Shown here one piece after another: positions 6,305 through 24,000 of a stretch of DNA of 24,000 nt. The position numbers were made by a program, and so were the translations under genes. Numbering within the stretch: position 1 is the first letter of the stretch; every line of letters starts with the position of its first letter. Location of the stretch: positions 80,152 through 104,151 of the forward strand of contig DLGF01000020.1 in the NCBI GenBank assembly GCA_002482545.1. Reading direction: 5' to 3'. Origin of the DNA: Sporomusaceae bacterium UBA7701. Lineage in GTDB: Bacteria > Bacillota > Negativicutes > Sporomusales > UBA7701. The notes beneath the pieces were generated by a model. It saw only the letters and a list, made by a program, of their open reading frames with translations, was not told the DNA's origin and searched no databases.

Positions 6305-6340
6305 CGGTTGGCTTGCGTTAACAAAATAAGGAGCCCCAAA

Positions 6341-6539: not shown

Positions 6540-7045
6540 TTGGCTATAATACCGAAATTGCCGTTATCGCACGGTGGAATGGCAGCGCATGGCAGCGCGT
6601 ATTCGGGGGATTTTCGCGACAAGATTGATATGTGGTCTGGCTCTGTTGCTGATATTCCTACAGGCTGGGTACTGGTAGATGGCTACAGCGTACGCACCCC
6701 GAAGGCGGCAATTATACCCCTCCTGACCTCCGAACAGGTTTATTGTCGGCGCTGGGCAGGATGATGGGACACATACGCCTGGAACAAATGGCATAGGTAC
6801 GGGGTATTATGCTCCGGGAGCTACAGGCGGCGAAGATAAGCATAGTTTAATCGGAAACGAGAACGGTCCTCATGCACATGGTGTAGGCGTAGACCTTCCA
6901 GGGTCTGCTGGACCCAATACTAATTGTTTTGCAAGCAACAAAGGTATAAGTGTTCAAGGTTATGTATCCACAAATTCTTCTGGTAGCGGCATAGCCCACA
7001 AAATAGACCTCTTACTATGCGCTGTGTTTCTTGTATAAATTATAA
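6540..7045 (+). pseudogene. Tail-fibre C-terminal tip (tail-collar-like), multiply frameshifted
   Basis: Three frames each carry a piece of one domain. Frame 1 (6540-6764): IDMWSGSVADIPTGWVLVDG. Frame 2 (6727-7038): NRFIVGAGQDDG...GGEDKHSLIGNENGPHAHG. Frame 3 (ending 7045): SYYALCFLYKL*. Together they match the I.mwsG..IP.GW..CDG...PDLR.RF.VGAG...H.H...PYYAL.FI.K pattern of phage fibre tips. Confidence 0.6.
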
Positions 7046-7741: not shown

Positions 7742-7782
7742 TATATATCTCCTTAGTTGGTATAAATAGTTGGTATAAATCA

Positions 7783-7791
7783 ATTATACCA
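7783..7791 (-). promoter_or_regulatory. Extended -10 promoter (TGGTATAAT) for the methyltransferase
   Basis: The - strand reads tttttTGGTATAATtg about 40 nt upstream of ATG 7741. The 5' UTR contains a 13-nt tandem direct repeat, agttggtataaat x2 on the + strand at ~7754-7779. Confidence 0.55.
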
Positions 7792-7811
7792 AAAAAAGGG
7801 CAGGTGAGACC

Positions 7812-9570
7812 ATGCCAAAACAATTACCCGTGACGGCTCCGGATAGGGGCATCAATAAGTATCTGCCGAAGAACCTCATCGACGACCGGGCCTGGAGCGA
7901 CGGCAACAACGTGCATTTCGGCGTCGGATATGCGGAGAAGGTCGGCGGGTGGAAGGAGTTTTTGAACCGTCCCGTCCCTTGGCAGGCGTCCACGGCTTAC
8001 AGCCCGGGCGCTTATATTATGCCCAGCTCTCCTACCGGACACGTCTATCAATGCACGACCGAGGGCACAACCGGTTCCGTGGAACCGGTGTGGCCGGCCA
8101 CCGCCGGCGATACAGCGGCGGACGGCACCGCCGGCTGGACGAATGTGGGAGTCAACCAGCTCAGCGGGATTATTATGGCAATGGACAATTATTATCTGTT
8201 CAACGGCAACAGTTATCTGATGGCCGTCACCACCACCCATTGTTACCGCTACGACCCCGACGCCAATACTTTTGTCGACATCACCAGCGGCACGCCGCTG
8301 AACGGCACGAGCGAGCACCCGGTCATCACCGAAAACGCGCAGAACTGGTTTGTTTTCACTAACGGCGTCGATCCGGTGAAGTACTGGGACGGCGACTTGG
8401 CCCACACCATCGCCGATCTGCCGGGGCTCGACGATGTCGAGGGCGGGGCGACTTCGGTCCGCTGCAAAACGCTCCTCTATTTTCAGAATTTCCTCCTGCT
8501 GGGCGGCACGACGGAGAACGGCACTCCTTTTCCCCAGCGCATCCGGTGGAGCTGTATCGGCGATATCGCCAAATGGAAAAACGTCGCCGGCGACATATCC
8601 CGGTCGGAGGCCGGGTACGGCGACCTGACCGACGACGTGTCCTGGGTGGTCGGCCTTCGCCCGCTGGGCAATTATGTGGCGGTGTATAAGGAGCGCGCCA
8701 TTCAACTCATGAATTACGCCGGAGGGGCGACCATCTGGAACAAGTGGCCGGCATTCATCGGCACCGGGCTGCTTTCGGCCAAGGCGCTGGTCGACCTGGG
8801 AGACGAACACATCTTTGTGGGCAACGACAATATTTACAGCTTCAACGGCCGGGAGCCGAGCATCGCCGGCGACGATGCGGCCAAGGAGTTCTTCCGCGTC
8901 CTGGACCCGGACAAATACGGCCTTATCGCGGGTTTTTACGTCGAGGAGGTGCCGGAACTTTGGTTTGCCTTTCCATCGACTTCCAGCCCGGACGGCCACC
9001 CGGACAAGGCCATTGTCTACAACACCGACACCAAAGCATGGTCGATGCGCGATCTGCCGATGACGGCCTTCGGGTATTACAACCGGCGGGGAGACGGCGT
9101 ATGGGATGCCGACGACGATACCTGGGACAATCATAGCACCGAGTGGGATGCCAGTATAAATCTCGATAACGCGCCGATCAACCTGGCGGGGGGGCGCGGA
9201 CGGCGGCATTTATGTGTTCGAGGGCAACGCCAAGGACGGGGCTTCCGTGCCCATCGACAGTTTCCTGACCACCAAGCTGTTCGATTTCGGCGCGCCGGAT
9301 AAAATCAAGAGGCTCCTCAGGATACAGTTCATGATATCCCGCGAGGGGCCTTACTATTTGCCGGTGTATGTCGGGACGGCGGCCAACGTGGACGAGCCGG
9401 TGACGTGGCACGGGCCGTACAATATGAGCCTGGACAAGACGAGCCCGCCGTGGGTCGATGTGGATGTGTCGGCCCGGTATCTGTGCCTTCGCATGGGCAC
9501 CGCGGGCGCGGACGAGCCGTGGCGGCTGACCGGCTACATCCTATATTACGAACTCAGGGGTGGTTACTGA
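7812..9570 (+). pseudogene. Large phage tail/adaptor structural protein (~586 aa if repaired), frameshifted at a G7 tract
   Basis: Frame 1 (7812-9302) reads ...DNAPINLAGG, then nonsense. Removing one G from GGGGGGG (9188-9194) gives ...INLAGGADGGIYVFEGNAKDGASVPIDSF..., joining seamlessly to ORF 9214-9570. The stop overlaps the next gene's ATG. Structural role is inferred from size, position and repeated beta-strand-like motifs. Confidence 0.75.
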
Positions 9571-10205
9571 TGGCGATACCGCAACTCCCTCAGACGCCGA
9601 ATGTCGGGCCGGAGGTGCCGAATACCCTCTGGAAGTGGCTGATCGAGATGGGGAACCGGCTGCGGCAACTGATCGATTTCGCCAATAAGCCTGTTGCGGC
9701 CGGGGTTCCCGCGCATGCCCCGACCCACGCCAGCGGCGGCGGCGACGTGCTGACGCCGTCGGATATCGGGGCGGCTCCGGCGTTTCGCGGTTGCCGAATC
9801 TACAATGAAAGCGGCGGGTCCCAAAGCATAGCGGCAGCAACCAACACGAAGGTTGCCTTTAATACCACCGCTTTTGACACGAATGGTTTTTATGATTCAA
9901 CCACTGATAAGATCGTTATTCCCGCAGGCGTGTCATATGTGGAATTGACCGCAGAAGTAAACTGGACGGGAACATATACGGCAGCAAATTCAAGACGGCT
10001 GGCAGCCATAACAAAAAATGGCGGCAATGTCGCTTTGTCGGCGTGTTCGGCTTCCAACGGGAATACATATCTAAATGTGTCCACCGGACCGATTTCCGTG
10101 TCAGCAGGGGATTATTTTGAATTGTTCGTCTTGGAAAACGATACTGCAGCAAAAACAATCACGCAGGATACTATTACATTTTTGTCGATGAAGGTGCTGG
10201 CATGA
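9570..10205 (+). CDS. Tail fibre protein with a C1q/TNF-like C-terminal domain (start at ATG 9570, not 9405)
   Basis: ATGA overlap with the upstream stop. The motif HAPTHASGGGDVLTPSDIGAA is the H..tH..GG.D.i.p..IGA motif common in phage fibres. The C-terminal ~130 aa (RIYNESGGSQSIAAATNTKVAFNTTAFDTNGFYD...GDYFELFV) looks like a jelly-roll head domain. DNA composition becomes AT-richer from ~9830. Confidence 0.7.
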   Translation: MAIPQLPQTPNVGPEVPNTLWKWLIEMGNRLRQLIDFANKPVAAGVPAHAPTHASGGGDVLTPSDIGAAPAFRGCRIYNESGGSQSIAAATNTKVAFNTTAFDTNGFYDSTTDKIVIPAGVSYVELTAEVNWTGTYTAANSRRLAAITKNGGNVALSACSASNGNTYLNVSTGPISVSAGDYFELFVLENDTAAKTITQDTITFLSMKVLA

Positions 10206-10537
10206 TGGACCTGGCGCAAATGATCGATGACTTTTGCCGGCGCGCGCCCGGCGACTACACACCGGAGCAAATTATCGCCGCCATAAAAGACAATCACATC
10301 CTTGCCGATGATGATTGTTTTATTGTTTTTGCGGCGGTGCAGGACGAAATCCATATGCTTTTCCCCTATGCCCCGCGCGGGAAGTCGATAGAGGCGGTTC
10401 GCCGCAAGTTGGAAGATTTGGCTAGGAGCAACGGGTATAAACGCATTCAGATCATTACGGACCGCGAAAAGGCGTTCGTGCGCAAATTTAAGGACTATCG
10501 CCCGATAGGAGTACTTTTCGAAAAGGAGCTGATCTAA
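10202..10537 (+). CDS. Hypothetical phage protein (111 aa), weak GNAT motif-A-like segment
   Basis: ATGA overlap with the upstream stop. The segment PRGKSIEAVRRKLEDLARSNGYKRIQIITDREKAFVRKF resembles the acetyl-CoA-binding core of GNAT folds, by eye only. Confidence 0.6.
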   Translation: MMDLAQMIDDFCRRAPGDYTPEQIIAAIKDNHILADDDCFIVFAAVQDEIHMLFPYAPRGKSIEAVRRKLEDLARSNGYKRIQIITDREKAFVRKFKDYRPIGVLFEKELI

Positions 10538-11278
10538 TTGGGAAGCCTGTTCGGCAGCAAAACGACAACGACTTCCAAGCAGACCCCGTTTTCCGGCAAG
10601 CAAAAGGACTGGTACGAAGGGTTTCAGCCTTACCTCATGGGGCGGGTCAACAACCCCATCCGCTACGGCGGCGAGACTGCCGCGCCGATCAATCAGACCC
10701 AGTCGGACGCCATCGGCAAGCTGCAGGACAGCGCCGCTAACCGGACGCTGCAGGACTATGCGGAAGGGGCGTATATCGACCCCATGAGCAATCCTTATGT
10801 GACGGCGCAGGCCGACGCCATCCGGCAGGCCGGGCAGGAAGCCTGGGGAGAGCAGGGACGGCAGGTCAACGATTTGTTCAACAAAAACAGCTTCTGGGGC
10901 GGCAGCGCCCATCAGGACCAAGTGGCCAAGACCCAGAAGGATGTCAACCAGTCTACCCAAAACTCCCTGGCCAGTCTCTACGGCAGCGCTTACAATTCCG
11001 GGGTAAACCAGATGCTGAATGCCCAGGGCGCCCGGCAGAGCGCGGCCGAGGCTCTGTTGAACGCGGGCAACACGGAGTATGGCATCGCCGACACCAAGGC
11101 CCAGCGGGACCTGGAGCTGTTCTTCCGGGAACAGGGGCTGGATGAGCAGACCATCCAGGATTACCTCAGCTATTTGGGGCTGGGCAAGAATCCGACCCAA
11201 ACCCAGACGCAAAGCAGCAACGGCCTGGGCGGAGTTTTAGGGTCGCTGGCCGGCGGCTGGGCGAGTACGTGGAAGTGA
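10538..11278 (+). CDS. Hypothetical virion-internal/ejection-type protein (Gln/Ala/Asn-rich, 246 aa)
   Basis: TTG start with SD AAGGAG 9 nt upstream. GC3-rich frame. Low-complexity helical composition and its position in the tail/internal-protein block. Confidence 0.65.
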   Translation: MGSLFGSKTTTTSKQTPFSGKQKDWYEGFQPYLMGRVNNPIRYGGETAAPINQTQSDAIGKLQDSAANRTLQDYAEGAYIDPMSNPYVTAQADAIRQAGQEAWGEQGRQVNDLFNKNSFWGGSAHQDQVAKTQKDVNQSTQNSLASLYGSAYNSGVNQMLNAQGARQSAAEALLNAGNTEYGIADTKAQRDLELFFREQGLDEQTIQDYLSYLGLGKNPTQTQTQSSNGLGGVLGSLAGGWASTWK

Positions 11279-11290
11279 GGTGTTTGAATT

Positions 11291-12052
11291 ATGGCAATAT
11301 CCTTTGCGGATGCCTTTGCCCAGGCGTATGGGCAGGGAATGCAGCGGCGGTGGCTGCAAGAACAGGAGGAAGCGGAGCGCAAGCGGCAAAACGAAGGGGC
11401 CAAGGCGGTTTTGGAGCTCATCAACTCCATGGGCCGGCAGCAGGCCAATGCGGACGCTTCCAGCGGGCTAAATCAGGCCGTATCCGGGTTTAATGCGCTT
11501 AACCCCGATAAGGGCGCGCCGGATTTTTCGTTTCAGACGCCTGACCTTACGCAGCGCCCGGGCGGTAACTGGCAAAGCCCGACCGGCAGCAGCAGTTTAG
11601 CCGGTTTGGCGCAGAGCACTTTCGGCGGGACTCAGCCGCAGTCAGGCAGCCTTGTTTCATTGATGCCGAAAGTCGAGGCCCCCAAATATGATGATGCTTC
11701 GATGTACGGCACGATGGCTAAGGCGCTGGGGCAGGGTGTGGATTATTCGCTTGCGGCGTCGATTATCCCCGGGTATTTTGAAAGGCAAAAGGCTGAAAAA
11801 CTGAAGAATGAACAGCCCGGTGCATTCAAGGAGGAACGGGCATTCTACACGCCGGAAAAGCAAAAGGAGATCAGGGCGGCGGACGGATACGGCGAGGCCC
11901 ATGGCCCGAACCGGCACGGCGGTGGTGCACAGGGAACTGTCAATGCGCAGCAGATTGATGGAATTGTAGCCCAAATTAAAGCGGAAAATCCTGATGCCAC
12001 ATATGGAGAGATTTTCCAATATCTCTATAGCGCATTCGGATATGGTCGGTAA
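11291..12052 (+). CDS. Hypothetical virion-internal protein (253 aa)
   Basis: SD GAGGTG upstream of ATG 11291. Coding-like GC3. No recognisable catalytic motif. Confidence 0.65.
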   Translation: MAISFADAFAQAYGQGMQRRWLQEQEEAERKRQNEGAKAVLELINSMGRQQANADASSGLNQAVSGFNALNPDKGAPDFSFQTPDLTQRPGGNWQSPTGSSSLAGLAQSTFGGTQPQSGSLVSLMPKVEAPKYDDASMYGTMAKALGQGVDYSLAASIIPGYFERQKAEKLKNEQPGAFKEERAFYTPEKQKEIRAADGYGEAHGPNRHGGGAQGTVNAQQIDGIVAQIKAENPDATYGEIFQYLYSAFGYGR

Positions 12053-12064
12053 AGGGGTGATAAA

Positions 12065-13633
12065 ATGCCTAGTTATCCAGAATGGCTAAATTCCTTCCTT
12101 GCTGGAATTAAGCCATGGAAACAGCAACCGGATGAAGAAGCCGCGAAGGTGACTCTTTCTTTGCTGGGCGGCACTGGGCCGAGAGGATTGGCGAAAGACA
12201 GCGGCTCTAACCCAACGCTACCGGCCACTGGCGGCTCCGGGCCGAGAGGGCTGGCGGAAGACAGCGGCTCTAACCCAACGCTACCGGCTACCGGCGGCTC
12301 CGGGCCGGGAGGGTTGGCGAAGGACAGCGGCTCTAACCCAACGCTACCGGCTACCGGCGGCTCCGGGCCGGGAGGGTTGGCGCAGGACATCGGCTTCACC
12401 CCGAAATTTGCCGATCTAGTAAGGGACTTCAGCGAGTGGAGGCAGGGACGAGGGGAGAACTTTCCCGGACTCGTTTACAATATCGGCGAAAACGCAATCG
12501 ATTCTACCGGTAATTGGGCCAAAGTCGCTGTACAAGGTGCGAGGGAGCAGATCAAGCAGGAACGCACGCTCCGCAAAATCGCGGTGGTGGATGAGTTCGG
12601 CAACGCCATCCCGCGTCCCGGCGTCAGTCCTGAAGATGTGGCGGCGCAAGCGGCTCTGGTCAAGCGAGCCCACACCAATTTCATCAACGAAACCCTGAAG
12701 CCCGCGGCGTATATCGCGGGCTTTGCCAATCCCATCGTGGCCCTGCCGTTTATCGCCGCCGACGCTAAAGCTTTGTACGATCAGGGCGGGGCCGGTAATG
12801 TGGTGAAGGAGTTTACCGGCTATACCGCACTGAGGAACGCGACGCAGAACCCCGAAGAGTTTGGCCGGCGATTCTACGAAAAGCCGCTAACGACCGCCGC
12901 CGAATTCGTGCCGGCCGTTTTGCTGGCTAAAGGCGTATATAGCGGGATTCGCGGCAGGGCTGTACCGAGAGAGACGGCAAAAGGAGTAAAACCGGCAGAG
13001 GAAGTTGCACCGAAAACAAGGCCGGAGCAGGCGGCCGCCACGCCTCAAGATCGCAGCGAAATAAGGGCAATATTTGAAAAGTCGAATGAGCTAACGGCAG
13101 TGATTGATGAAGGCTATAAAGTAAGGCCTGTGCAAAAAATAGTCAAAACCGGTGAGCTTGACCAAGTTGAAATACAAGCAATGAAACAAAAAACCGGCAT
13201 GGATTTAGCCGGTTATAGTCGTGAAATAACCTCTGAAAAAATTCGTCATGCAGTTAAAAAACATGGTGGATCTGCAGAAGCGGCACGGGGACAATTACCG
13301 TTGACAAGAAACGATTTTTTGAAAGTCCCCGAAATCGCCCGGGCTGAAAATGTTGTTAAAGTGGACGTAGGAAAAAGACAGCAGCCTCTCATTATATATG
13401 AAAAACCCGTTAACGGTTACCTCTATGTTGTGGAGGAAGTGTTAACAGGCAAGAAAACGTTGCAGTTTTTGTCTATGCGAAAACTAAAGAGGTCTTCTGC
13501 GCGACCAAATGCCGGGGAACCCGGCCCCGTCTCACACGTCCAAGACGTTCGCAGCCTGACCTCCACTTCTAATATATATAAATCAGAAGGCAAAGTCAAT
13601 GGCAATCCGGACCGTAGCCCTCCTTCCACCTGA
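12065..13633 (+). CDS. Polyvalent ejection-type protein: N-terminal region, 21-aa tandem repeats, hydrophobic central segments, C-terminal PBECR-like (barnase/EndoU/colicin-E5/RelE-like) nuclease module
   Basis: SD AAGGGGTG before the ATG. Repeats at 12167-12403. Hydrophobic stretches AAYIAGFANPIVALPFIAA and TTAAEFVPAVLLAKGVY. C-terminal motif ITSEKIRHAVKKHGGSAEAARGQLPLTRNDFLKVPEI...IIYEKPVNGYLYVVEEVL, as I recall it from PBECR-type modules of phage/ICE polyvalent proteins. Confidence 0.7.
   Translation: MPSYPEWLNSFLAGIKPWKQQPDEEAAKVTLSLLGGTGPRGLAKDSGSNPTLPATGGSGPRGLAEDSGSNPTLPATGGSGPGGLAKDSGSNPTLPATGGSGPGGLAQDIGFTPKFADLVRDFSEWRQGRGENFPGLVYNIGENAIDSTGNWAKVAVQGAREQIKQERTLRKIAVVDEFGNAIPRPGVSPEDVAAQAALVKRAHTNFINETLKPAAYIAGFANPIVALPFIAADAKALYDQGGAGNVVKEFTGYTALRNATQNPEEFGRRFYEKPLTTAAEFVPAVLLAKGVYSGIRGRAVPRETAKGVKPAEEVAPKTRPEQAAATPQDRSEIRAIFEKSNELTAVIDEGYKVRPVQKIVKTGELDQVEIQAMKQKTGMDLAGYSREITSEKIRHAVKKHGGSAEAARGQLPLTRNDFLKVPEIARAENVVKVDVGKRQQPLIIYEKPVNGYLYVVEEVLTGKKTLQFLSMRKLKRSSARPNAGEPGPVSHVQDVRSLTSTSNIYKSEGKVNGNPDRSPPST
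12167..12403 (+). repeat. 63-bp in-frame tandem repeat, 3 full copies plus one partial (GGSGP(R/G)GLA(K/E)DSGSNPTLPAT)
   Basis: Copies at 12167-12229, 12230-12292 and 12293-12355, with a partial copy at 12356-12403. Copies 2 and 3 are almost identical at the DNA level. Confidence 0.95.
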
Positions 13634-13857
13634 CTGCATTAAAGAATTATAAAGAGGCTCTCACTGTCACCGGTGGGGGTTACGGTTCGCGCGGTGCTAC
13701 GCATCCCGAGCATATGCGTACTCGTCCCGGAACGGAGGAAGCCTCTCTAATAAAGGACATTTCCGGTCCTTCTGCCAATACCTCCGAAAGACGATCTCAA
13801 GGGCAAGAAAGCGCAGAGCAAGTAAGGCACCATGCTATGCAGGCCGAGGGGCGGCCA

Positions 13858-14334
13858 ATGATAAAAAAAGAGGTAAAGAATTCCTCGTCACTAAGTCAGG
13901 AGAAGGTGGATTCTTTTGTCGACGAGTCGTTGGTGCGACACGGTCCCCGCAGGTATTTGCCGCTGTCTATCGTTAGACCGGAAGAGGCGGCACGAATAAA
14001 AGAACTTACCGGAGTGGACACCACGGGGTTCAGGCATGAAATCAACAATCACGACTTAAGGCACGCAATCAAACAGCATGGCGATCCTGTCAGAGAGGCA
14101 GCTGTTGGACAACTGCCAATAACACAAAAGGACTTGAAGATGATTCCTCAAGTCCTCAGAGAGTATGATCAAATTTTACCAGGCAGCCCCAATGTTAACG
14201 GTAAGTCGGTCCGCTATGTAAAACGGGTGAACGGCCATATTATCGTCGCGGAAGTCTTACGCGAAGAACGCAAAACAATGGCGGTAAAAACAATATGGAA
14301 GAAGCCCGCTAGCGTAAGTCATGACACCCCGTGA
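13858..14334 (+). CDS. Stand-alone PBECR-like nuclease-module protein, paralogue of the C-terminus of 12065-13633 (the ORF is open from 13714)
   Basis: INNHDLRHAIKQHGDPVREAAVGQLPITQKDLKMIPQV...VRYVKRVNGHIIVAEVL aligns colinearly with the upstream protein's C-terminal domain. SD GAGGGG lies 6 nt before ATG 13858. Confidence 0.65.
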   Translation: MIKKEVKNSSSLSQEKVDSFVDESLVRHGPRRYLPLSIVRPEEAARIKELTGVDTTGFRHEINNHDLRHAIKQHGDPVREAAVGQLPITQKDLKMIPQVLREYDQILPGSPNVNGKSVRYVKRVNGHIIVAEVLREERKTMAVKTIWKKPASVSHDTP

Positions 14335-14411
14335 AGGGATAATCCTTCCTTATACGTCCACCTAGGGAGCACAGCCCCTACCACCCGAACGTAGCGCGAC
14401 TTCTTCGAAAC

Positions 14412-14440
14412 ATTATACCCGAAATTAGCGAAACTATCAA
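14412..14440 (-). promoter_or_regulatory. Near-consensus sigma-70 promoter pointing antisense into the 3' end of the PBECR paralogue
   Basis: - strand: TTGATA (14435-14440), 17 nt spacer, TATAAT (14412-14417). Confidence 0.3.
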
Positions 14441-14764
14441 CGGCGAAGGCGATCGCAGATGGAAAACATGAATAAACTACTGTTGGTAGAGCGCCCACCC
14501 CTACAGCCTTAACTCGGCCAAGGCTCCGATTTGTACGGTTCGCCCCAAAATGCCGAGGGGGGGAACCGCCCAGGGCGGTATAGGCAACAGTAGTTCCATC
14601 ACCAATATAAATCCGTTCGTTCAAATAGTCAAGGAAACTCCCGACGGCATTCGCGGCGGACGGTTGGAAGCGGCTTCCAATCATTTTGGCGATAAGTTAT
14701 AATATTCATACAGGTTGTTTTAGGGACGGTTAGCCACACCCTTTTGCGAAAGGGGGTGGTGCTT

Positions 14765-14839
14765 ATGACTACATATGAGGCGTTGTCTTTTGCGATAGCA
14801 TTTGCCACGTTGATTGTGTTGATCATAAAAAAGAAGTAA
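14765..14839 (+). CDS. 24-aa holin-like small hydrophobic toxin (Hol-Tox-type peptide)
   Basis: MTTYEALSFAIAFATLIVLIIKKK*. Strong SD GGGGGTGGTG 3-4 nt... upstream (ATG 14765). The SD can pair with ccacaccc (14734-14741). Not in the ORF track because it is too short. Confidence 0.55.
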   Translation: MTTYEALSFAIAFATLIVLIIKKK

Positions 14840-14983
14840 CCGCGCCCGGCTAAGGATTGCGGTTACTCTTAAGGACATTCTTTTGGGCTAACCGTTTCCG
14901 GCTAGACAACCTGTAGGGGCTGGCGTGTATCGAGCACGTCAGTCCTTTTACTATATTGTACTCAGTTTCCCGAAAATATTCAA
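14826..14983 (-). ncRNA. Predicted antisense small RNA (promoter, ~120-nt transcript, terminator) overlapping the 3' end of the toxin ORF
   Basis: - strand promoter: TTGAAT (14978-14983), 17 nt spacer, TACAAT (14955-14960). The hairpin GTAACCGC...GCGGTTAC (14836-14866) is followed on the - strand by TTCTTTTTTAT, which is the complement of the toxin's KKK codons. Confidence 0.35.
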
Positions 14984-14992
14984 GCGGTGTTG

Positions 14993-15025
14993 CGGAAAAG
15001 AGACGGTCAGCCCGTCTCTTTTCCG
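14993..15025 (+). terminator. Perfect 14-bp stem-loop (insulator/terminator) between the toxin locus and the lysis cassette
   Basis: cggaaaagagacgg-tcagc-ccgtctcttttccg. There is no long U tail after it, so its function as a terminator is uncertain. Confidence 0.45.
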
Positions 15026-15146
15026 TTGGGGGTTCGCCGGCGAATGCTTCGATAGAGAACACCGGTTTTGTTTCGTATTACCCTAAAGGAGGTGGTCCTA
15101 ATGGAAGAATGGGGAAAACAGGGGAGAAGAGAGAGGAGGCGCAAAG

Positions 15147-15593
15147 ATGGAATACACACAGACGGAACTTAAGCTTTGGGCGGCCTGTTCCGCGGCGGGC
15201 GCGGCGCTGTCGTTTCTGATCGGCGGCTTTGACGCGCCGGTGAAGGCGCTCTTGGTGCTGATCGGCGTCGATTACGCCACCGGAATCCTCGCCGCCTGGA
15301 AAACGGGCATGCTGAGCAGCCAGCAGGGCTTTCACGGGCTAGGAAAAAAGGTCGCGATCGTCGCCATCGTGGCGTTTGCCAATATGCTGGATCTTTCGAT
15401 GGCGCTGAATCATACGCTGCGGTCGATGGCCATATTCGGGTTTGCCGGCATGGAGGGCATGAGCATCATTGAAAATGCCGACCGGGCCGGATACGGGGCG
15501 TATGTCCCGCAGTTTATCCGCGACAGGCTCCTGCAGCTCAGGCAGGAGAAGGGGCTTAGCCAGCCGGGAGGGAGCGACAAAAGCAAATGTTAG
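15147..15593 (+). CDS. Phage holin (holin_4_1 / toxin-secretion holin family)
   Basis: SD AGGAGG 7 nt before the ATG. Three hydrophobic helices plus the signature DYATGILAAWKTG...SSQQGFHGLGKKV...SIIENADRAG. Confidence 0.9.
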   Translation: MEYTQTELKLWAACSAAGAALSFLIGGFDAPVKALLVLIGVDYATGILAAWKTGMLSSQQGFHGLGKKVAIVAIVAFANMLDLSMALNHTLRSMAIFGFAGMEGMSIIENADRAGYGAYVPQFIRDRLLQLRQEKGLSQPGGSDKSKC

Positions 15594-16207
15594 GGAAATT
15601 GTCCAGCGTGTACGAAAGCAACGGCGATCCCGGCTGCATATCATCCGGCGCGGGAGACGCCGGCGGCGTGAGCTACGGGACCTATCAGCTCGCGACCAAT
15701 ACCGGCAGCGTGGATCGTTTTGTCCGATGGCTTAACGATAGCCATCATCCGGCAGGGATGGTTTTAAGCGGCAAACGCGCCGGCAGCCGGGAATTTTCGG
15801 CAGCCTGGAAATTCTGCGCGGAAAACTTGGCCGACTTCGGCGATATCCAGCACGAATATATCCGTCACCTATACTATGACCCTGCCGTGGCCGCGCTCAG
15901 GGACGCCTGCTGGCATCTCGAAAATCACCATGAAGTCATGAAAGATGTCGTGTGGAGCCGCGCCGTGCAGTACGGAACCGGCTACATCGTGGAGATGTTC
16001 GAGACCGCCGCCAAGCGCCTGGGGTATCCGAACCTGTCCTATGTGGACGCGCCGGACTTTGACGCGGCGATGATCCGCGCCATTTATCTGGAGGTCTGCA
16101 AGACGCCCGAATGGACCGGCGGGAGCCCGGCTTTACGCGCAGGGCTGTATGCCAGGTTCGAAAACGAATGCAGCGATGCCTTGGCCAGGTTGGGCCAATT
16201 TGCTTAG
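15587..16207 (+). CDS. Lysozyme-like endolysin (glycosidase superfamily; E...D-GG-SYG motif)
   Basis: Overlaps the holin stop. The N-terminal motif SVYESNGDPGCISSGAGDAGGVSYGTYQL resembles the catalytic Glu / Asp-Gly-Gly segment of chitosanase/lysozyme-like muramidases. Placement directly after the holin supports the call. Confidence 0.65.
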   Translation: MLGKLSSVYESNGDPGCISSGAGDAGGVSYGTYQLATNTGSVDRFVRWLNDSHHPAGMVLSGKRAGSREFSAAWKFCAENLADFGDIQHEYIRHLYYDPAVAALRDACWHLENHHEVMKDVVWSRAVQYGTGYIVEMFETAAKRLGYPNLSYVDAPDFDAAMIRAIYLEVCKTPEWTGGSPALRAGLYARFENECSDALARLGQFA

Positions 16208-16222
16208 GGGGGGCGATTACAA

Positions 16223-16645
16223 TTGATAAAAAGAGTTGCCTTATTATTGTCCTTGCTGCTCTTTTGGCTGGCGCTGCCGGGTACATGCTCGGCGCATCAG
16301 GTAACGGAGGAGCAATTGACCAGGTTAGAGCAGATATTCAGTCAGTTAGAGCAGAACAACAGTCAATTATTGACCGACTTGGAACAATCGAAAACCGACT
16401 TGGGAGAGACGCGGCGGAAGCTGGAAGGATATCGGACGGACTTGGCGAAGCTGCAGGCGGACTTGCTGGCGTTGAAGAGCGAATCGGCGCAGGCCAGACA
16501 AGAGCTGGAGACAGCCAACGCCTCATTGGCGAAGGCCAATCAATCCTTGGCGCAATACGCGAAGGCGGCCAAGGCGCAAAGCGATAGCCTGAAGCTGCAG
16601 CGCAATTTATGCCTGCTCGCCGCCGTGTTTTTCGCCGTCAAATGA
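16223..16645 (+). CDS. Signal-peptide coiled-coil protein with short C-terminal hydrophobic tail (spanin-like, last gene of the lysis cassette)
   Basis: TTG start 10 nt after a G7 SD-like run. Leader MIKRVALLLSLLLFWLALPGTCSA. About 95 aa of heptad-rich coiled coil. C-terminal LCLLAAVFFAVK. GC3-rich in this frame. Confidence 0.65.
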   Translation: MIKRVALLLSLLLFWLALPGTCSAHQVTEEQLTRLEQIFSQLEQNNSQLLTDLEQSKTDLGETRRKLEGYRTDLAKLQADLLALKSESAQARQELETANASLAKANQSLAQYAKAAKAQSDSLKLQRNLCLLAAVFFAVK

Positions 16646-17613: not shown

Positions 17614-18042
17614 GGGGGAGCTCCTTTCCGGAATGACGGTTTCGCCATTGGCATGGCGCGGCGAAATTTAATATTAGACGTGTGGTCCGTTAATTCCTGC
17701 CAGCCGTATCCATGGGCCCAAGGAGCGTTCCATTGGAACGGAGCGGCGGCCATCGCATACAGCCGGTTGTTTTGGCGAAAGCTAACCGGTATGACCGCCT
17801 GCGCGGGCGGGAAAGGCTCTAAATTACCGCCAGGCCCCAGGATTTGAATTTTTACAGCGATAAGCCGGGCTGAGGAGTCCGGAAACCGCCAAGGCCATCT
17901 TGCATAAATTGGCAGAACAGGTTACGCTGGTGGATAATAGTCTATAATGTAAGAGACCTGTTATTCAGCGGCTATTGGGTTGTCTGGAGTTTGGCGCTAC
18001 GATCTAGGAACAGGCGACAGGTTTTCGAAGCGGGGGATTGGG

Positions 18043-18825
18043 ATGAAGATCGGTTTTTTCGATTCGGGCGTCGGCGGGATGACGGTGCTCTGGCGGGCGC
18101 TGAGGCTGCTGCCCCGGGAGGATTATATCTATTTCGCCGATACGGCTCACGTGCCCTACGGGGAAAAAACGAAAAGCGAGGTACGCGGCTTCGTGTTTGA
18201 GGCGGTCGAGTTCCTGGCCGGGAAAAACATCAAGGCCCTGGTGATTGCCTGCAATGCCGCGACCAGCGCCGCGGCGAAGGAGCTTAGAAAAGAGTTCGGG
18301 TTTCCGATTATCGGCATCGAGCCCGCCGTCAAGCCGGCCATTCAGCGAAGCCAGCAAAAAGGCAAGCGGGTGCTGGTGCTGTCCACCCATCTGACGCTCC
18401 GCGAGGAGAAATACAATAATCTCGTGGCCAGGCTGGACGATGCCGGGCTGGTGGACGGCCTGGCGCTGCCGGGGCTGGTCGCGTTCGCCGAGCGGTTTGA
18501 ATTCCGCCCCGAGGTTGTCCTGCCTTATATTAAGGAAGAGTTGGCCCGTTTCACTGTGGAGCGGTATGGCACGGTGGTCCTGGGGTGCACCCATTTTCCG
18601 CTGTTTACCGACATGCTCCGGCAGCTTTTTCCCGCCGGGACCGATATCATCGACGGCGGGCTGGGGACGGCCATGAATCTGAAGCGGATCCTGACCGAGC
18701 AGAAGCTGCTGAACGGCGGCTCCGGGGAAATTGAGTATTACAGTTCCGGCAGCAAAATAGAAGACGGCGAGAAGCTGGACCGGTATAGCGGCCTGCTGGC
18801 ACGGCTGGATCATATATACGGTTAG
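18043..18825 (+). CDS. murI: Glutamate racemase
   Basis: MKIGFFDSGVGGMTVL, the two catalytic-Cys motifs VIACNAATSAA and LGCTHFP, and IGIEPA. The ORF-track start at 17980 is upstream of the conserved N-terminus. Confidence 0.95.
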   Translation: MKIGFFDSGVGGMTVLWRALRLLPREDYIYFADTAHVPYGEKTKSEVRGFVFEAVEFLAGKNIKALVIACNAATSAAAKELRKEFGFPIIGIEPAVKPAIQRSQQKGKRVLVLSTHLTLREEKYNNLVARLDDAGLVDGLALPGLVAFAERFEFRPEVVLPYIKEELARFTVERYGTVVLGCTHFPLFTDMLRQLFPAGTDIIDGGLGTAMNLKRILTEQKLLNGGSGEIEYYSSGSKIEDGEKLDRYSGLLARLDHIYG

Positions 18826-18860
18826 GTTGGAAGCCCTTATTTTCAGGAGGAGATTCATAA

Positions 18861-19679
18861 GTGAATTTTAATATCCGCCAGGCCCCAAACGGCGTATGGT
18901 ATGGAAGTTTTCCCGAGTTTGACCGGTTGGGCGTCCGGCATGGTTTTGCCACCCGCCTGGGCGGCGCCAGCGAAGGACCGTATAAATCGCTCAATCTGGT
19001 GTTTCGCGCCCGGGACGAAGTGGAAAATGTCATCGGCAACCGGCGGAAGTTTTGCGAGGCCGTCGGGGTCGACCTGACCCGGGCGGTCGGCGGCCATCAG
19101 GTCCACGGGGACCGGGTGGGGGTGGTCGCGCCGGGCGACGCCGGCAAAGGGGCCGCCTCGTCTGACGGGCTGGAAGGAACCGACGCCTTGATTACGAATG
19201 TGCCGGGGGTGCCCCTGATGATCTTTTTTGCCGATTGCGTTCCCCTCTTGCTGGTGGACCCGGTGCGCAAGGCGGTCGGGGCGTGCCACGCCGGGTGGCG
19301 GGGCACGGTCGCCCGGATCGGGGCGAAAACCGTGCAGGCCATGGAGCGCCACTTCGGCACCCGGCCGCAGGATTGCCGGATTGCCCTGGGGCCGTCGATC
19401 GGTCCCTGCTGCTACGAGGTGGACGACAGCGTGATGAACCGCTTCCGGGAAGCCTTTGACTGGTGGGAAGCGGCCGCCGTCCGGCGCGGGGAAAAATGGC
19501 TGCTCAACCTGTGGGAGGCCAACCGGCGCCAGCTTATCGACGCCGGCGTGCCTGCCGGGAACATCGCGATGAGCGACGCCTGTACGGCCTGCAATACCCC
19601 GCTCTTTTTCTCCTACCGGGCGGAGAACGGCGATACCGGCAATCTGGCCGCCGTCATTTCGCTGCAGGAGGGCTGCTGA
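18861..19679 (+). CDS. pgeF: Peptidoglycan editing factor PgeF (YfiH/DUF152, laccase-domain protein)
   Basis: HGFATRLGG...SLNL, HQVHGDRV, DALIT, FFADCVPLLL, CHAGWRGT, GPSIGPCCYEV, FFSYR. GTG start after GGAGGAG. Confidence 0.9.
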   Translation: MNFNIRQAPNGVWYGSFPEFDRLGVRHGFATRLGGASEGPYKSLNLVFRARDEVENVIGNRRKFCEAVGVDLTRAVGGHQVHGDRVGVVAPGDAGKGAASSDGLEGTDALITNVPGVPLMIFFADCVPLLLVDPVRKAVGACHAGWRGTVARIGAKTVQAMERHFGTRPQDCRIALGPSIGPCCYEVDDSVMNRFREAFDWWEAAAVRRGEKWLLNLWEANRRQLIDAGVPAGNIAMSDACTACNTPLFFSYRAENGDTGNLAAVISLQEGC

Positions 19680-19718
19680 AGCGCCGCTTGACCCGACGTT
19701 CCTTTGCAAGCCAAACCC

Positions 19719-19744
19719 AAGGCCGGCACAGCTGTGCCGGCCTT
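19719..19744 (+). terminator. Rho-independent terminator after pgeF
   Basis: aaggccggcaca-gc-tgtgccggcctt perfect stem, followed by a T-rich tail. Confidence 0.7.
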
Positions 19745-19782
19745 CGCTATTTGTTGGTCGTCCCGGGCGATCTTTCAAATCA

Positions 19783-19811
19783 TTGGAAAAACCAATAAAC
19801 TACGCTACAAT
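19783..19811 (+). promoter_or_regulatory. Candidate sigma-70 promoter for the prdD/prdE-like pair
   Basis: TTGGAA, 17 nt spacer, TACAAT. Confidence 0.4.
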
Positions 19812-19877
19812 AAATGTAAGAGTTGAATTATCGAAAGATTGAGTGTTTTTCAGAATGCCGGAAAGGGGATTGGTAAT

Positions 19878-20639
19878 ATGGCGCAAGAAAAAGTAGTAAG
19901 GCGGCTGGTAATTAAAGCTTTTCATATTCAAAACGCCGTTTTAGGAAAAGATAATGATGTAACCTGTGATGGGAAATTGACAATCCATGATGAAGTATTG
20001 CTGGAAATTCTTAAAGAAGAGCCAGCTGTCGCGAAGATCGACATTGCTATCATTCAACCCGGCGACTATGATCGGCATACCAATGCCATCCTGGATTTTA
20101 TCCCGCTTTCAACAAAAGTTTCGGGGAAATTGGGAGAGGGAGTTACCCATACGTTGACAGGAGTGTATTTCATGTTGACCGCCATTGATACAACGGGCAG
20201 GCAAGTAGCCCGATCGGGTTCTCCCTATGGATTGTTGAAAGACCATGTATGCCTGGGGAAAGCAGGCACCCCCAGCGCCGCCGATTACATCATAGCTTTT
20301 AATGTTACCCTGGATGGGGAAACCAGTCATACGCGAAATACTGTAACAGCCGCCCATCGGGCCTGCGATAGGTTTTGCCAGATATTTAGAAATAAGATGA
20401 AAAAATTCGATGGAAATAAATGTACGGAGCAACATGAATTTTTGGACAAAATAAAAGAAGCTAAATTCAGGGTGGCTATATTCAAACAAGTACCGGGGCA
20501 GGGAGCCATGTTTAACACCCATGTTTTTTCGCATGAACCTTCCGGCAATCTGAGCGGGAAATCCGTTATTGATATGGAAAATGTTCCGGTTGTCCTGACG
20601 CCTAATCAATATAGAGACGGCGCCCTGCGCGCCATGTAG
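19878..20639 (+). CDS. GrdE/PrdA-family (glycine/sarcosine/betaine/D-proline reductase) N-terminal-half homologue, PrdD-like
   Basis: VVRRLVIKAFHIQNAVLGKDNDVTCDGKLTIHDE...IIQPGD...GVTHTLTG... is colinear with the N-terminal (beta) part of GrdE/PrdA proproteins as I recall them. It ends ...YRDGALRAM*, where the proproteins carry their self-cleavage site. AT-richer than the flanks. Confidence 0.6.
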   Translation: MAQEKVVRRLVIKAFHIQNAVLGKDNDVTCDGKLTIHDEVLLEILKEEPAVAKIDIAIIQPGDYDRHTNAILDFIPLSTKVSGKLGEGVTHTLTGVYFMLTAIDTTGRQVARSGSPYGLLKDHVCLGKAGTPSAADYIIAFNVTLDGETSHTRNTVTAAHRACDRFCQIFRNKMKKFDGNKCTEQHEFLDKIKEAKFRVAIFKQVPGQGAMFNTHVFSHEPSGNLSGKSVIDMENVPVVLTPNQYRDGALRAM

Positions 20640-20656
20640 CAAAGGAGGGCTGGTTC

Positions 20657-21133
20657 ATGGGAGTAAGCGCGTCGACAAAGGAAACTACTTTGCATTATTT
20701 CCGGGATCCTTTGGTGAATTTAGTGGCGCAAGATGCAGATGTTGATTTGACTGGAATTGTAATTATCGGTGTGCCGCAGGATCAGGAGAGCAAAATACTG
20801 GCATCCGAATTGGCGGCCAATTGGGCGGAAGCCATGCGGTTGGACGGAGCGATCGTTACTACCGAAGGATGGGGAAACGACCATATCGATTTTGCAGAAT
20901 TGGTAGAGCTGTTGGCGGTGAGGGATATCGCAGTATCCGGGCTTAGCTTTATCGGCGGGGAAGGTTTTGTGGTTTCGAATGAATATATGGATACCATTGT
21001 TGATTTCAATAAATCCGAAGAAGGCTATGAGACCGGCCGGATCGGCGAGAACAATGCAGATTTGTTGGATGCGAAAAAAGCATTGGCGTTTTTAAAATTA
21101 AAGATGCAAAAGAAGAAAGGAATAAAACGATAG
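20657..21133 (+). CDS. GrdE/PrdA-family C-terminal (alpha-part) homologue, PrdE-like
   Basis: Consensus SD AAGGAGG. MGVSASTKE...RLDGAIVTTEGWGNDHIDF matches ...C-VSAC...LDGAIISQEGFGNPDTD of the processed alpha subunit. At 158 aa it has the PrdE size. Confidence 0.6.
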   Translation: MGVSASTKETTLHYFRDPLVNLVAQDADVDLTGIVIIGVPQDQESKILASELAANWAEAMRLDGAIVTTEGWGNDHIDFAELVELLAVRDIAVSGLSFIGGEGFVVSNEYMDTIVDFNKSEEGYETGRIGENNADLLDAKKALAFLKLKMQKKKGIKR

Positions 21134-21314: not shown

Positions 21315-21332
21315 TTAATTTGAATAATAAAA

Positions 21333-21425
21333 GAATCTATAGGCAAACTTATCGAAAGATAAGGACGCAAAGCTATGGGTCTACGGACAGAGGGTCTATG
21401 ATTGCCAGGTTGCATCCGATAGCGG
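21333..21425 (+). promoter_or_regulatory. c-di-GMP-I (GEMM-I) riboswitch aptamer
   Basis: uaGGCAAAcuuaucGAAAgauaaGGACGCAAAGCuaUGGGUCU...GCCAGGUUGC. It has the GNRA-capped first hairpin and the conserved GGCAAA / GGACGCAAAGC / GGGUCU / GCC.GGUUGC blocks. The second hairpin is atypical. Confidence 0.7.
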
Positions 21426-21436
21426 ATTGTATTTTA

Positions 21437-21473
21437 GCACCCGTCTGTCTTTTTTGACGGGTGCTTTTGTTTG
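21437..21473 (+). terminator. Riboswitch expression-platform terminator
   Basis: gcacccgtc-tgtctttttt-gacgggtgc followed by ttttgtttg. Confidence 0.75.
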
Positions 21474-21577
21474 TCCTGAGAAGAATATCTTTAAGCAATC
21501 GTGTTAGGGGAATTGTATGGATTTGGGGATGTTATCGATGCCTATAGCCTGTGCACAGAAGTTTGAAAGGAGAATGT

Positions 21578-22219
21578 ATGCGTATTATAAAAATTCTGAT
21601 CATCGCGTGTCTGAGTGTACTTTTGACGGCTTGCGGAACAAACTTTTCTTCAGGAGCCGGGGATGCCGGCAACTCGCACGCAAGCAGGGATCCTAAGACG
21701 GAAACGGCGTCGGAGACTTCCCCAAATCAGGCGGCGACACCGGCGAAAACTCCCGGCAGAGTAGAGATATCTTTTGATTTCAATCGAAGCTTTAAAATGG
21801 CAAGCGATCAGTTGGCAGTATGGGTGGAGGACGAACAAGGAAACCATATCAGAACGCTGTTTGTCACCAAGTTTACGGCCAACGGGGGATATCGCCAACG
21901 GCCTGAATCGGTGCCCAACTGGCAGAGGGCTTTTCAGCCAGAGCAGGCAAATCGCGCTGTCTTTGACTCTATTGCCTCAGCGACCTTGCAAACGGGACGG
22001 ATTTCAGTAATCTGGGACTGCCTTGATCAAAACGGTGAAGCAGTTGCCGCCGGCCGCTATATTTATAAAGTGGAGGCAAATATAGAATGGCAAAAAGTCG
22101 ACTTATGGCAGGGGGATATTACCGTAGGCTCATCGCCTTCCCAGGCGGACGCCCGATTTGTGCAAGGCGACGGCAGTAAACTGCAAGCAGTGAGGGCTGC
22201 TTTTGTGCCCTCCAATTAA
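21578..22219 (+). CDS. Lipoprotein, DUF2271-like
   Basis: SD AAAGGAG. Lipobox SVLLTAC. DQLAVWVEDEQGNHIRTLFV...ATLQTGRISVIWDCLDQNGEAVAAGRYIYKVEA resembles the DUF2271 pattern (AvWied...tL..., ATr.pG....WdG.d..G..v..G.Y...vE). Confidence 0.6.
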   Translation: MRIIKILIIACLSVLLTACGTNFSSGAGDAGNSHASRDPKTETASETSPNQAATPAKTPGRVEISFDFNRSFKMASDQLAVWVEDEQGNHIRTLFVTKFTANGGYRQRPESVPNWQRAFQPEQANRAVFDSIASATLQTGRISVIWDCLDQNGEAVAAGRYIYKVEANIEWQKVDLWQGDITVGSSPSQADARFVQGDGSKLQAVRAAFVPSN

Positions 22220-22276
22220 TGCGGGAATCTTATCTTCCCCGAAATGGCGCGGCAAAAGGCAAAATAAAGATCGCGG

Positions 22277-22315
22277 AACCGAAAGTCTGCCACAGGCTTT
22301 CGGTTTTGCTTTTCC
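22277..22315 (+). terminator. Rho-independent terminator
   Basis: aaccgaaag...ctttcggtt stem followed by ttgcttttcc. Confidence 0.65.
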
Positions 22316-22646
22316 AGTAAACTTTCTGTCGGGCGTTATTGGCGCCATGTCATATTCCTAGCGGAACCGTTACCTCCCGGGAATTTCGCCGCCGCCATCA
22401 GGCAGCCTGAGTAGGATCACTTTAATGATTGCATATTTCTCTCGACTTGCCGTTAAATTTATGTTATTTGTTGGTAAACATCTGTTGAAGATTGTCGCAT
22501 ACCATCGGGCCATACTGCGGGGGTTGCCGGCTGCCGTCAGGCCAAGAAAAAACGCCCGCTGGAGGGGCGCCTTTCCGTGAGGGGAATGGACAGGCATTGC
22601 GTGTTTTCATGAGAGTAATCCCGTCTCCCATTGACGCATAATCTGG

Positions 22647-22693
22647 TTGACCGGCGGCTAGTCTATTGGTTATCATATAGATATATAGATGAT
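22647..22693 (+). promoter_or_regulatory. Candidate promoter (TTGACC, 18 nt spacer, TATCAT) with overlapping ATCAT-N12-ATGAT inverted repeat and atatagat x2 direct repeat; possible ArsR operator
   Basis: -35 at 22647-22652 and -10 at 22671-22676. Inverted arms at 22672-22676 and 22689-22693. About 170 nt upstream of arsR. Confidence 0.3.
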
Positions 22694-22865
22694 TGTCGAT
22701 GTAATTTCAGTTGATAGAGCTGCTCGCGAGCAAGGTTGCATCGAAGCTTTGCCGATCCATCCGGTTTTCAGGGCCCGGACGACGAGATCGTGAATGGGGT
22801 GCGGGCGGTTTCAGCGGGATTAAAGACCGGATTATTACGACTTCTGGCGAGAGGGGTGAGCCAAG

Positions 22866-23165
22866 GTGAAGGAACAAGCGGAAATCTTCAAAGCGTTAGG
22901 GGATCCGGTCCGCCTGGAAATTATCAAGCTGCTTCTGGGCAAAGAATTGTGCGTCTGCGACATTTTGAGCGCCTTCAAAGTCTCGCAGCCAACTATTTCT
23001 CATCATTTGAAGGCGTTGAAGTACGCCGGATTGGTCAATGACCAGCGCGAAGGAAAGTGGATCTACTATAGCCTGGCTCCGGAGGCGTTTGCGCAGGCGA
23101 ACGCGGTGCTTCAGGAATTCGCGGCGAAATCGGTGGCGAAGGAGCGGGGGAGGACCTGTGAGTAA
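22866..23165 (+). CDS. arsR: ArsR/SmtB-family metalloregulator
   Basis: FKALGDPVRLEIIKLL, metal-site motif ELCVCD, wHTH VSQPTISHHLKALKYAGLV. GTG start after GAGGGGTGAG. Confidence 0.9.
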   Translation: MKEQAEIFKALGDPVRLEIIKLLLGKELCVCDILSAFKVSQPTISHHLKALKYAGLVNDQREGKWIYYSLAPEAFAQANAVLQEFAAKSVAKERGRTCE

Positions 23166-23258
23166 GGCCTTCGGGGTTATAGCGAGGCGGAGAGATTTAT
23201 AAGTAAGACGGCGATCTATACAAAATTGGGCGATTAACGGATGGAGAGGAGTATTGCT

Positions 23259-24000
23259 ATGGAAAAAGGTCCGGTTGCCAGAGAATGTTCCTGTTCTTGC
23301 AACGGTGATCCGCAAAATAGCGAAAACCGGTGCTGCAAGCCAATGCCTCCGGCGCATGCCGGCGAAAACCGCACGCCTTGGGTGATCGGGGCGATAGAAA
23401 CTTCAACAGGGAAAATCCCTCAAGTGAGCACCGAGTATACGCCGCGGGACAGGTTCGGGGCATGGAAGGCGCGCTGGGGCATCGGGCGGATGGACTATAA
23501 AGTTCCGCCCGGTCTCTACGGAGTGGGGAATCCCGATGCTAATTCCCTGGTGCTGGTCTCGGCCAACTATAAGATGAGTTTCGACCGGCTCCGCTCCGAA
23601 TTGAAAGGCCTCGATCTGTGGATCCTGGTGTTGGATACCAGGGGCGTCAACGTCTGGTGCGCAGCCGGCAAAGGAACGTTCGGGACCGAAGAGCTGGTCC
23701 ATCGTATCAGTCAAGTGAGGCTTCCGGAGATCGTGACCCATCGGGCCTTGATCGTGCCCCAGCTCGGTGCGCCCGGCGTGTCTGCCCATAAGGTCTTGAA
23801 GCTGTCGGGCTTTAGAGTGCTGTACGGTCCGGTAAGGGCCGCGGATGTTCCGGCGTTTATCGGCAGAGGCTTGAAGGCCACTGCCGCTATGCGGGAGGTC
23901 CGGTTCGACATGCGGGATCGTTTGGTGCTGGCGCCCTTCGAACTGGTCAGCACCGTCAAACCGGCGCTCCTTCTTTTGGCGGTGCTCTTTTTGGTCAACC
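23259..24000 (+). CDS. hgcA: Mercury-methylation corrinoid protein HgcA (5' ~247 codons; continues beyond the window)
   Basis: SD GGAGAGGA 8 nt before ATG 23259. No stop through to the window end, hence absent from the ORF track. Signature cap-helix motif NVWCAAGKGTFGT (23649-23687) within ...PGLYGVGNPDANSLVLVSANYKMSFDRLRSELKGLDLWILVLDTRGVNVWCAAGKG...LIVPQLGAPGVSAH. The first TM helix begins at the end of the window. Confidence 0.85.
   Translation, partial: MEKGPVARECSCSCNGDPQNSENRCCKPMPPAHAGENRTPWVIGAIETSTGKIPQVSTEYTPRDRFGAWKARWGIGRMDYKVPPGLYGVGNPDANSLVLVSANYKMSFDRLRSELKGLDLWILVLDTRGVNVWCAAGKGTFGTEELVHRISQVRLPEIVTHRALIVPQLGAPGVSAHKVLKLSGFRVLYGPVRAADVPAFIGRGLKATAAMREVRFDMRDRLVLAPFELVSTVKPALLLLAVLFLVN

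Follow-up and report, generated by a model that had tools for sequence, protein, structure and literature searches.

The pairing of an arsR-type regulator gene with the mercury-methylation genes hgcA and hgcB, and the presence of other arsenic-resistance (ars) genes beside them, have already been published. Among 31 confirmed methylators, 14 carry an arsR gene ahead of hgcA (PMC10349881). In Pseudodesulfovibrio mercurii ND132, the ArsR-like gene upstream of hgcAB is co-transcribed with them and responds to arsenic (10.1101/2022.10.17.512643), and the control of hgcAB by ArsR in this strain is experimental (Gionfriddo et al., 10.1101/2022.10.17.512643; Goni-Urriza et al. 2020). In metagenome-assembled methylators, acr3, arsC, arsM and arsR flank hgcAB (McDaniel et al. 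2020, PMC7438021, Fig. 6). Here, we describe an arsR-hgcA pair at the end of a 24,000-nt stretch of DNA, hereafter the window, from Sporomusaceae bacterium UBA7701 (GenBank assembly GCA_002482545.1, contig DLGF01000020.1, positions 80,152 to 104,151 of the forward strand). An earlier note, made from the letters of this DNA alone, had pointed out the pair and stated that such adjacency is known in some methylators, in agreement with the published count. To this we add the gene identities, with a full HgcA and HgcB read on an extension past the window, an arsC fossil with its decay series, and a conserved promoter with a candidate operator. We consider it quite likely that the locus is an arsR-hgcA-hgcB operon, repressed by ArsR and standing on a promoter inherited from an ars operon.

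The window resembles the arsR2-hgcA-hgcB locus of ND132 in having an ArsR/SmtB-family gene immediately before hgcAB, in the same orientation. By its description, however, ArsR2 carries a non-canonical four-cysteine site (Cys47/49/86/88), and hgcAB in ND132 stand without ars genes beside them, whereas the ArsR of the window has a CVC pair in helix α3, a C-terminal cysteine and a demonstrable descent from an arsC-arsR-acr3 operon. With only three cysteines (29, 31 and 98), placed elsewhere in the protein, the window ArsR does not fit the ArsR2 type described for Desulfovibrionaceae. Like the loci of McDaniel et al. (2020), the window links hgcAB physically to arsenic-resistance genes, but its ars structural genes are gone or a pseudogene, and only the regulatory front end is left. 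The locus of Lucifera butyrica has the same order, promoter-(arsC remnant)-arsR-hgcA-hgcB, with 78% nucleotide identity over 2.1 kb, but it lies between other genomic flanks, and its ArsR is longer by 14 aa at the C-terminus. The arsC-arsR-acr3-arsD-arsA operons of Negativicutes (loci L211 and L213) share with the window an orthologous ArsR, an arsC stop that overlaps the arsR start, and a promoter of the same layout (TTGAC, 17-18 nt, TAnnAT, AT-rich block). They have no hgcAB, whereas in the window hgcAB stand in place of acr3, arsD and arsA. We also surveyed the 80 hgcA matches listed from a genome scan with an HgcA alignment, all at 58% identity or less and without Lucifera and Acetonema. 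An ArsR homologue lay within 1.5 kb upstream on the same strand in 20 of these, mostly Firmicutes, and acr3 or arsC lay within the retrieved flanks in about 25.

hgcA at the end of the window and hgcB beyond it

On the + strand, the reading frame that starts at ATG 23259 stays open through the last base of the window (24000). The coordinates that the earlier note had given for this frame and for the cap-helix motif NVWCAAGK (23649-23672) were exact, and the ANYKMSFD, GTFGT and PQLGAPGV context was found around the motif. The nearest in-frame stop 5' of this start is TAA 23235, with ATG 23241 as an alternative start; we favoured 23259 because homologues open with the same MEKGP or MKKGP. The absence of the gene from the list of open reading frames (ORFs), which had also been noticed, comes from the omission of ORFs that run off the window end. 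The companion remark that all listed ORFs are shadows on the - strand holds only approximately, as short off-frame ORFs are also present on the + strand. The long antisense ORFs at 22896-23357, 23403-23789 and 23711-23998 had no Pfam match.

A public contig of 3957 nt (L001), retrieved by exact-protein look-up with the ArsR described below, matched the window from 21354 to 24000 without mismatch (2647 nt) and reached 1310 nt further, supplying the last 134 codons of hgcA as well as hgcB. Read on this contig, HgcA has 381 aa, and the window carries its codons 1-247 (23259-24000, + strand). Against the NCBIfam equivalog model of HgcA, NF040863 (cut-off 275 bits), the 247-aa fragment scored 328.6 bits and the full-length protein 480.3 bits, which bore out the model search that had been proposed. 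The hgcB gene, outside the window at 3070-3378 of L001, starts 18 nt after the hgcA stop. It encodes a 102-aa protein with CX2CX2CX3C motifs at residues 20-30 and 50-60. As is usual for HgcB, there is an additional cysteine, Cys73, and vicinal cysteines follow near the C-terminus (88-89 and 99-100). This protein scored 126.3 bits against the HgcB equivalog NF040864 (cut-off 99). The closest named sources of HgcA were both Negativicutes, namely Lucifera (Allolucifera) butyrica (82% identity) and Acetonema longum (84% over the annotated 326 aa). A. longum DSM 6540 serves as an hgcAB-positive reference culture in published primer panels.

Pfam saw only the generic CdhD domain in HgcA, and two other identities were rejected by model scores. 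The model of fused HgcAB-like proteins, NF043039, which stands for a non-methylating paralogue, gave 188.2 bits against a cut-off of 285, and that of the acetyl-CoA synthase gamma subunit or corrinoid iron-sulfur protein (CFeSP), NF003195, gave 60.9 bits against 306. The earlier note had expected the transmembrane domain and hgcB past the window, and L001 carries both hgcB and a five-helix HgcA C-terminus. The two outcomes that it had set against its own proposal, a downstream sequence without these features and a place among the paralogues, are excluded by this contig and by the paralogue scores. On this comparison, the window ends in a genuine hgcA of mercury methylation. The source organism, which is related to Lucifera and Acetonema, probably produces methylmercury. 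A. longum itself is said to be among the strains assayed by Gilmour and co-workers in 2013.

Residues N131, V132, W133, C134, A135, A136 and G137 of the cap-helix motif (residues 131-138; Cys134 at 23658-23660) were invariant across 23 HgcA homologues. The first transmembrane helix begins at about 23955 (about aa 233) and runs into the window edge, where the earlier note had placed it; the transmembrane domain as such became visible only after extension with L001. An AlphaFold model built with 23 homologues, of medium confidence (mean pLDDT, predicted local distance difference test, 68), placed C-terminal helices at 233-249, 256-283, 293-312, 318-342 and 348-379. Hydropathy at a threshold of 1.5 flagged four of the five segments, with 296-316 falling short. 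There was no solved HgcA structure in the PDB, and the nearest chains were CFeSP large subunits. The CFeSP-like domain of HgcA (residues 81-202) aligned with PDB 2h9a, where the Thr of LTAW faces Cys134. HgcA thus shares the corrinoid-binding domain of the CFeSP large subunit AcsC (PDB 2h9a/2ycl/4djd). It differs in the Cys that replaces Thr in the cap helix, in a membrane domain of five helices, and in the absence of the [4Fe-4S] and TIM-barrel domains.

Ahead of the corrinoid-binding domain, HgcA has a Cys-rich N-terminal tail (CSCSC...CC; codons 10-26, 23286-23336, + strand) that is predicted to be disordered. Similar CxC/CC tails were seen, across several phyla, in 34 of the 47 HgcA loci that could be scored, and not in Desulfosporosinus or Desulfitobacterium. 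No description of this tail was found in the searchable literature. It may serve as a metal-binding arm.

An ArsR/SmtB regulator directly upstream of hgcA

The arsR gene (GTG 22866 to TAA 23165, + strand) encodes a 99-aa ArsR/SmtB metalloregulator, which scored 71.4 bits against the winged-helix family HTH_5 of Pfam and 106.8 bits against NF033788 (cut-off 55). It lies 93 nt upstream of hgcA on the same strand and carries the ELCVCD motif, just as the earlier note had it. The protein has three cysteines in all, Cys29 and Cys31 of this motif (Cys29-Val-Cys31, at the α3 position) and the C-terminal Cys98, and all three were kept in the nine ArsRs aligned. By tblastn, it was 85-88% identical to the ArsRs of arsC-arsR(-acr3)-hgcAB loci. 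Orthologues at 63-73% identity occurred in arsC-arsR-acr3-arsD-arsA or arsR-acr3 operons without hgcAB.

In the 93-nt spacer between arsR and hgcA (23166-23258, + strand), a Shine-Dalgarno sequence, GGAGAGGAG, occupies 23243-23251 and ends 7 nt before the hgcA ATG. The spacer contained no promoter-like or terminator-like site, and its fold was not unusually stable compared with shuffles (z = 0.86). Positions 23196-23258 were conserved in the related loci L085 and L082. The arsR-hgcAB region held no riboswitch or other Rfam family.

In a sister clade, with HgcA 67-70% identical (L087 and L089), hgcA is immediately preceded by a MarR gene in place of arsR, and arsA-acr3 stand about 3 kb upstream. 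L087 also has hgcA and hgcB set apart by a molybdopterin oxidoreductase gene that runs on the other strand. One gene call, P0101, is a fused MarR+HgcA of 554 aa.

A truncated arsC in front of arsR

The stretch between promoter and arsR, which the earlier note had taken for a plain leader, contains a truncated arsC pseudogene. This remnant of a low-molecular-weight phosphatase-type arsenate reductase gene (22736-22869, + strand), found by tblastn and DNA alignment, consists of the last ~44 codons (134 nt), and its TGA (22867-22869) overlaps the arsR GTG. Positions 22736-22825 encode ArsC residues 100-129 with 67% identity to the ArsC of L084 (tblastn, E 2e-10). The match resumes in a second frame for the last 18 residues of the protein. 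Alignment to the intact arsC of L084 and L085 showed a clean truncation at about 22736 and one base missing near 22810/22811. A 9-nt inverted repeat, TCGATGTAA / TTGCATCGA, flanks the deletion junction at 22696-22704 / 22736-22744. The leader RNA from promoter to arsR was no better folded than shuffles.

Related loci retain more of the ancestral genes. L084 (HgcA 80% identical) has the order arsC-arsR-acr3-hgcA-hgcB, again with an arsC stop that overlaps the arsR start, and L085 (HgcA 84% identical) has arsC-arsR-(acr3 remnant)-hgcA-hgcB. The L085 remnant is a 31-aa piece between arsR and hgcA (1826-1915), 81% identical to residues 5-35 of the L084 Acr3, and on this similarity it is an intermediate stage of ars-gene decay. 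The arsC stump of Lucifera shares the truncation junction of the window and has an in-frame stop, and ~45 nt of arsC are left in L088 and L090. The close relatives form a decay series, from arsC-arsR-acr3-hgcAB through arsC-arsR-(acr3 remnant)-hgcAB to the window.

Homology of the window and L001 to L082, L084 and L085 runs from 22638 to the last codons of hgcB, and the flanking genes differ in every genome. The ~2.1-kb arsR-hgcAB module appears portable and is set in a different genomic context in each genome. No hgcA was found among the plasmids of PLSDB. The broken arsC and the conserved promoter described below show that the module derives from an arsenic-resistance operon.

Promoter and candidate operator

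The sole promoter-like site on the + strand upstream of arsR and hgcA is of the sigma-70 type, with TTGACC at 22647-22652, an 18-nt spacer and TATCAT at 22671-22676 (10 of 12 consensus matches). TTGAC and TAnnAT were invariant in eight related loci, two of them ars operons without hgcAB. When six arsR-hgcAB loci were aligned, TTGAC, the TAnnAT -10 and ATAGAyAyATA were invariant, and the sequence on both sides could not be aligned. The core TAnnATATAGAyAyATAGAT was kept in all six, and a related block was present in the two ars operons without hgcAB. On the strength of this conservation, we place a candidate ArsR operator in the AT-rich block at 22671-22700 (+ strand), which overlaps both the -10 and the start of transcription that is predicted here. 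This block is probably the ars promoter/operator of this ArsR lineage, because its architecture is also kept in ars operons without hgcAB; it would be the site bound by ArsR.

Within the block, ATATAGAT occurs twice in tandem at 22675-22690, inside ATCAT-N12-ATGAT (22672-22693). This dyad was found once in the window against 0.04 expected, and 4 of 100 shuffles have one. The arm equivalents were ATTAT/ATATA in L084, AACAT/TTAAT in L088, and ATCAT/ATAAT in L090 and Lucifera, and L085 has a perfect 20-nt palindrome. Because the dyads differ from locus to locus, the half-sites of the operator cannot be fixed by computation. From the earlier proposal of a promoter/operator at 22647-22693, the promoter-like site and the overlap with the -10 stood, and the ATCAT and ATGAT arms fell as the defined operator.

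In a search of 87 loci, the relaxed core motif upstream of hgcA was confined to the close clade. A metagenome scan with the operator pattern TAWYATATAGAYAYATAGAT returned 80 loci, and arsR adjoined the motif in L150 only; the other 79 were dismissed as chance AT-rich matches. In L150 (metagenome contig Ga0066602_10006390), the operator-like motif at 2133-2152 lies in the opposite orientation, 9 nt from a region that matches arsR (40% identity).

Proposed arsenic control of hgcAB and the alternatives

Under the explanation that we favour, arsR, hgcA and hgcB would form a three-gene operon, of which the window covers the 5' two-thirds. It would be driven from the promoter at 22647-22676, inherited from an arsenic-resistance operon with the ancestral order promoter/operator-arsC-arsR-acr3-hgcA-hgcB, which is still intact in one relative. 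In the lineage of the window, acr3 would have been lost and arsC reduced to its frameshifted 134-nt stump, with the repressor, the promoter/operator and hgcAB remaining. Most likely, an ArsR dimer on the AT-rich block over the -10 and the transcription start would repress arsR-hgcAB, and As(III) (or Sb(III)) at Cys29/Cys31, possibly with Cys98, would release it. HgcA would be the membrane-anchored corrinoid methyltransferase of mercury methylation, in which Cys134 of the cap helix is expected to ligate cobalt, and HgcB would be a 2x[4Fe-4S] ferredoxin that re-reduces the corrinoid.

The earlier note had called the cysteine site of ArsR an As(III)-type site. The motif is there, but it does not prove As(III) sensing, and ELCVCD is insufficient alone to name As(III) as the inducer, as Lmo1102, the closest solved structure, shares ELCVCDI. 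We nevertheless read the inducer as As(III) because of the arsC fossil in the window, the intact arsC and acr3 of close relatives, and the orthologues in classical ars operons. For the same reasons, together with the kept cysteines, the ArsR of the window is best described as an ars-operon repressor by descent.

Several points weigh against this explanation. The α3 site of the R773/E. coli ArsR is ELCVCDLC with Cys32/34/37, and the ELCVCDILS of the window holds two of these three cysteines; according to published work, two α3 cysteines suffice in R773 ArsR. The E. coli-type ArsR subfamily model NF007528 gave 75.5 bits, below its cut-off of 97, and the match to Lmo1102 is to a protein that we take to be a CadC-type Cd/Pb/Zn regulator of Listeria. 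Once the ars structural genes had decayed, ArsR may have shifted to a different ligand. The AlphaFold model leaves the cap-helix region of HgcA unresolved (pLDDT <50). At the promoter, the ATCAT/ATGAT dyad was rejected as a defined operator, its arms not being conserved as a complementary pair, and pseudo-palindromes are easy to find in such AT-rich sequence. Co-transcription, the operator, the inducer and methylation activity are what we infer.

If the regulator has shifted in this way, ArsR would now sense another thiophilic ion (Cd, Pb, Zn or Hg) or a metabolite such as S-adenosylhomocysteine, and hgcAB expression would be untied from arsenic. The shared motif of Lmo1102 and the score under the E. 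coli ArsR cut-off speak for such a change, as does ND132 ArsR2, which responds to S-adenosylhomocysteine as well; with arsC and acr3 gone, selection for arsenic sensing may also have lapsed. We nonetheless consider this unlikely. CadC-type regulators have an N-terminal arm that carries two additional cysteines of the α3N site, whereas the window ArsR begins at a position equivalent to Lmo1102 residue ~20-31 and is without this arm. Moreover, its three cysteines are invariant across nine orthologues, and it keeps 85-88% identity to ArsRs in still intact arsC-arsR-acr3 operons. A different objection concerns the promoter rather than the ligand: ArsR might be a relic that regulates only itself, and a promoter that escaped recognition, within arsR or in the 93-nt spacer, would drive hgcAB constitutively. 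Published hgcAB transcript levels track methylation poorly, and the MarR gene swapped in for the regulator in sister lineages implies that the upstream regulator is replaceable. The spacer without a sigma-70-like site and the lack of a terminator after arsR make this reading rather improbable, however, and in each genome the mobile module begins with the ars promoter rather than with hgcA; the arsR-hgcA junction, moreover, stayed tight after the acr3 deletion. That the ORF at 23259 is a non-methylating HgcA-like or CFeSP paralogue is scarcely credible. The Pfam match limited to CdhD would allow it, but the protein clears the HgcA equivalog cut-off by a wide margin and stays far below the cut-offs of the fusion-paralogue and acetyl-CoA synthase gamma models; the cap-helix Cys, the transmembrane domain and the adjoining HgcB are all there, and the 84% identity is to the HgcA of an hgcAB-positive reference culture.

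With an ArsR-repressed arsR-hgcAB operon as the favoured explanation, the locus lends itself to a cleaner test of the proposed link between arsenic and mercury methylation than ND132 does, given its canonical ars-operon ArsR, its gene-fossil ancestry and its 60-bp promoter/operator, defined here as a candidate. Should hgcAB prove to be induced by As(III) in this locus, co-contamination with arsenic would predict hgcAB expression in Firmicutes-type methylators. A more far-reaching idea, which we put forward as possible though doubtful, is that in this clade of Negativicutes hgcAB were recruited to the distal end of an arsC-arsR-acr3 operon inducible by As(III) and then kept its repressor and operator under selection for arsenic control, the native role of HgcAB being tied to arsenic or another thiophilic metalloid and not to mercury. 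Were it true, the decay of the ars genes in at least three truncation states, with repressor and operator kept, would reflect such selection.

Other features of the window

A complete c-di-GMP-I riboswitch aptamer was found at 21332-21417 on the + strand (Rfam RF01051, 72.4 bits against a gathering score of 35), upstream of a DUF2271/FlgD-Ig lipoprotein-like gene (21551-22219). About 6 kb upstream of the hgc module, a prophage-like block spans ~1563-16300. It contains a terminase fragment, a P22-like portal gene (2944-4755), NlpC/P60, two genes for proteins with a PBECR3 nuclease domain (12065-13633 and 13714-14334), a holin gene (15147) and a VgrG3-C-like lysin gene (15587). In the region 17980-21133, a gene of the Asp/Glu racemase family stands before two ORFs, each of which partly matches the component B family of glycine/sarcosine/betaine reductase. 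These two ORFs could encode proline- or glycine-reductase-like subunits.

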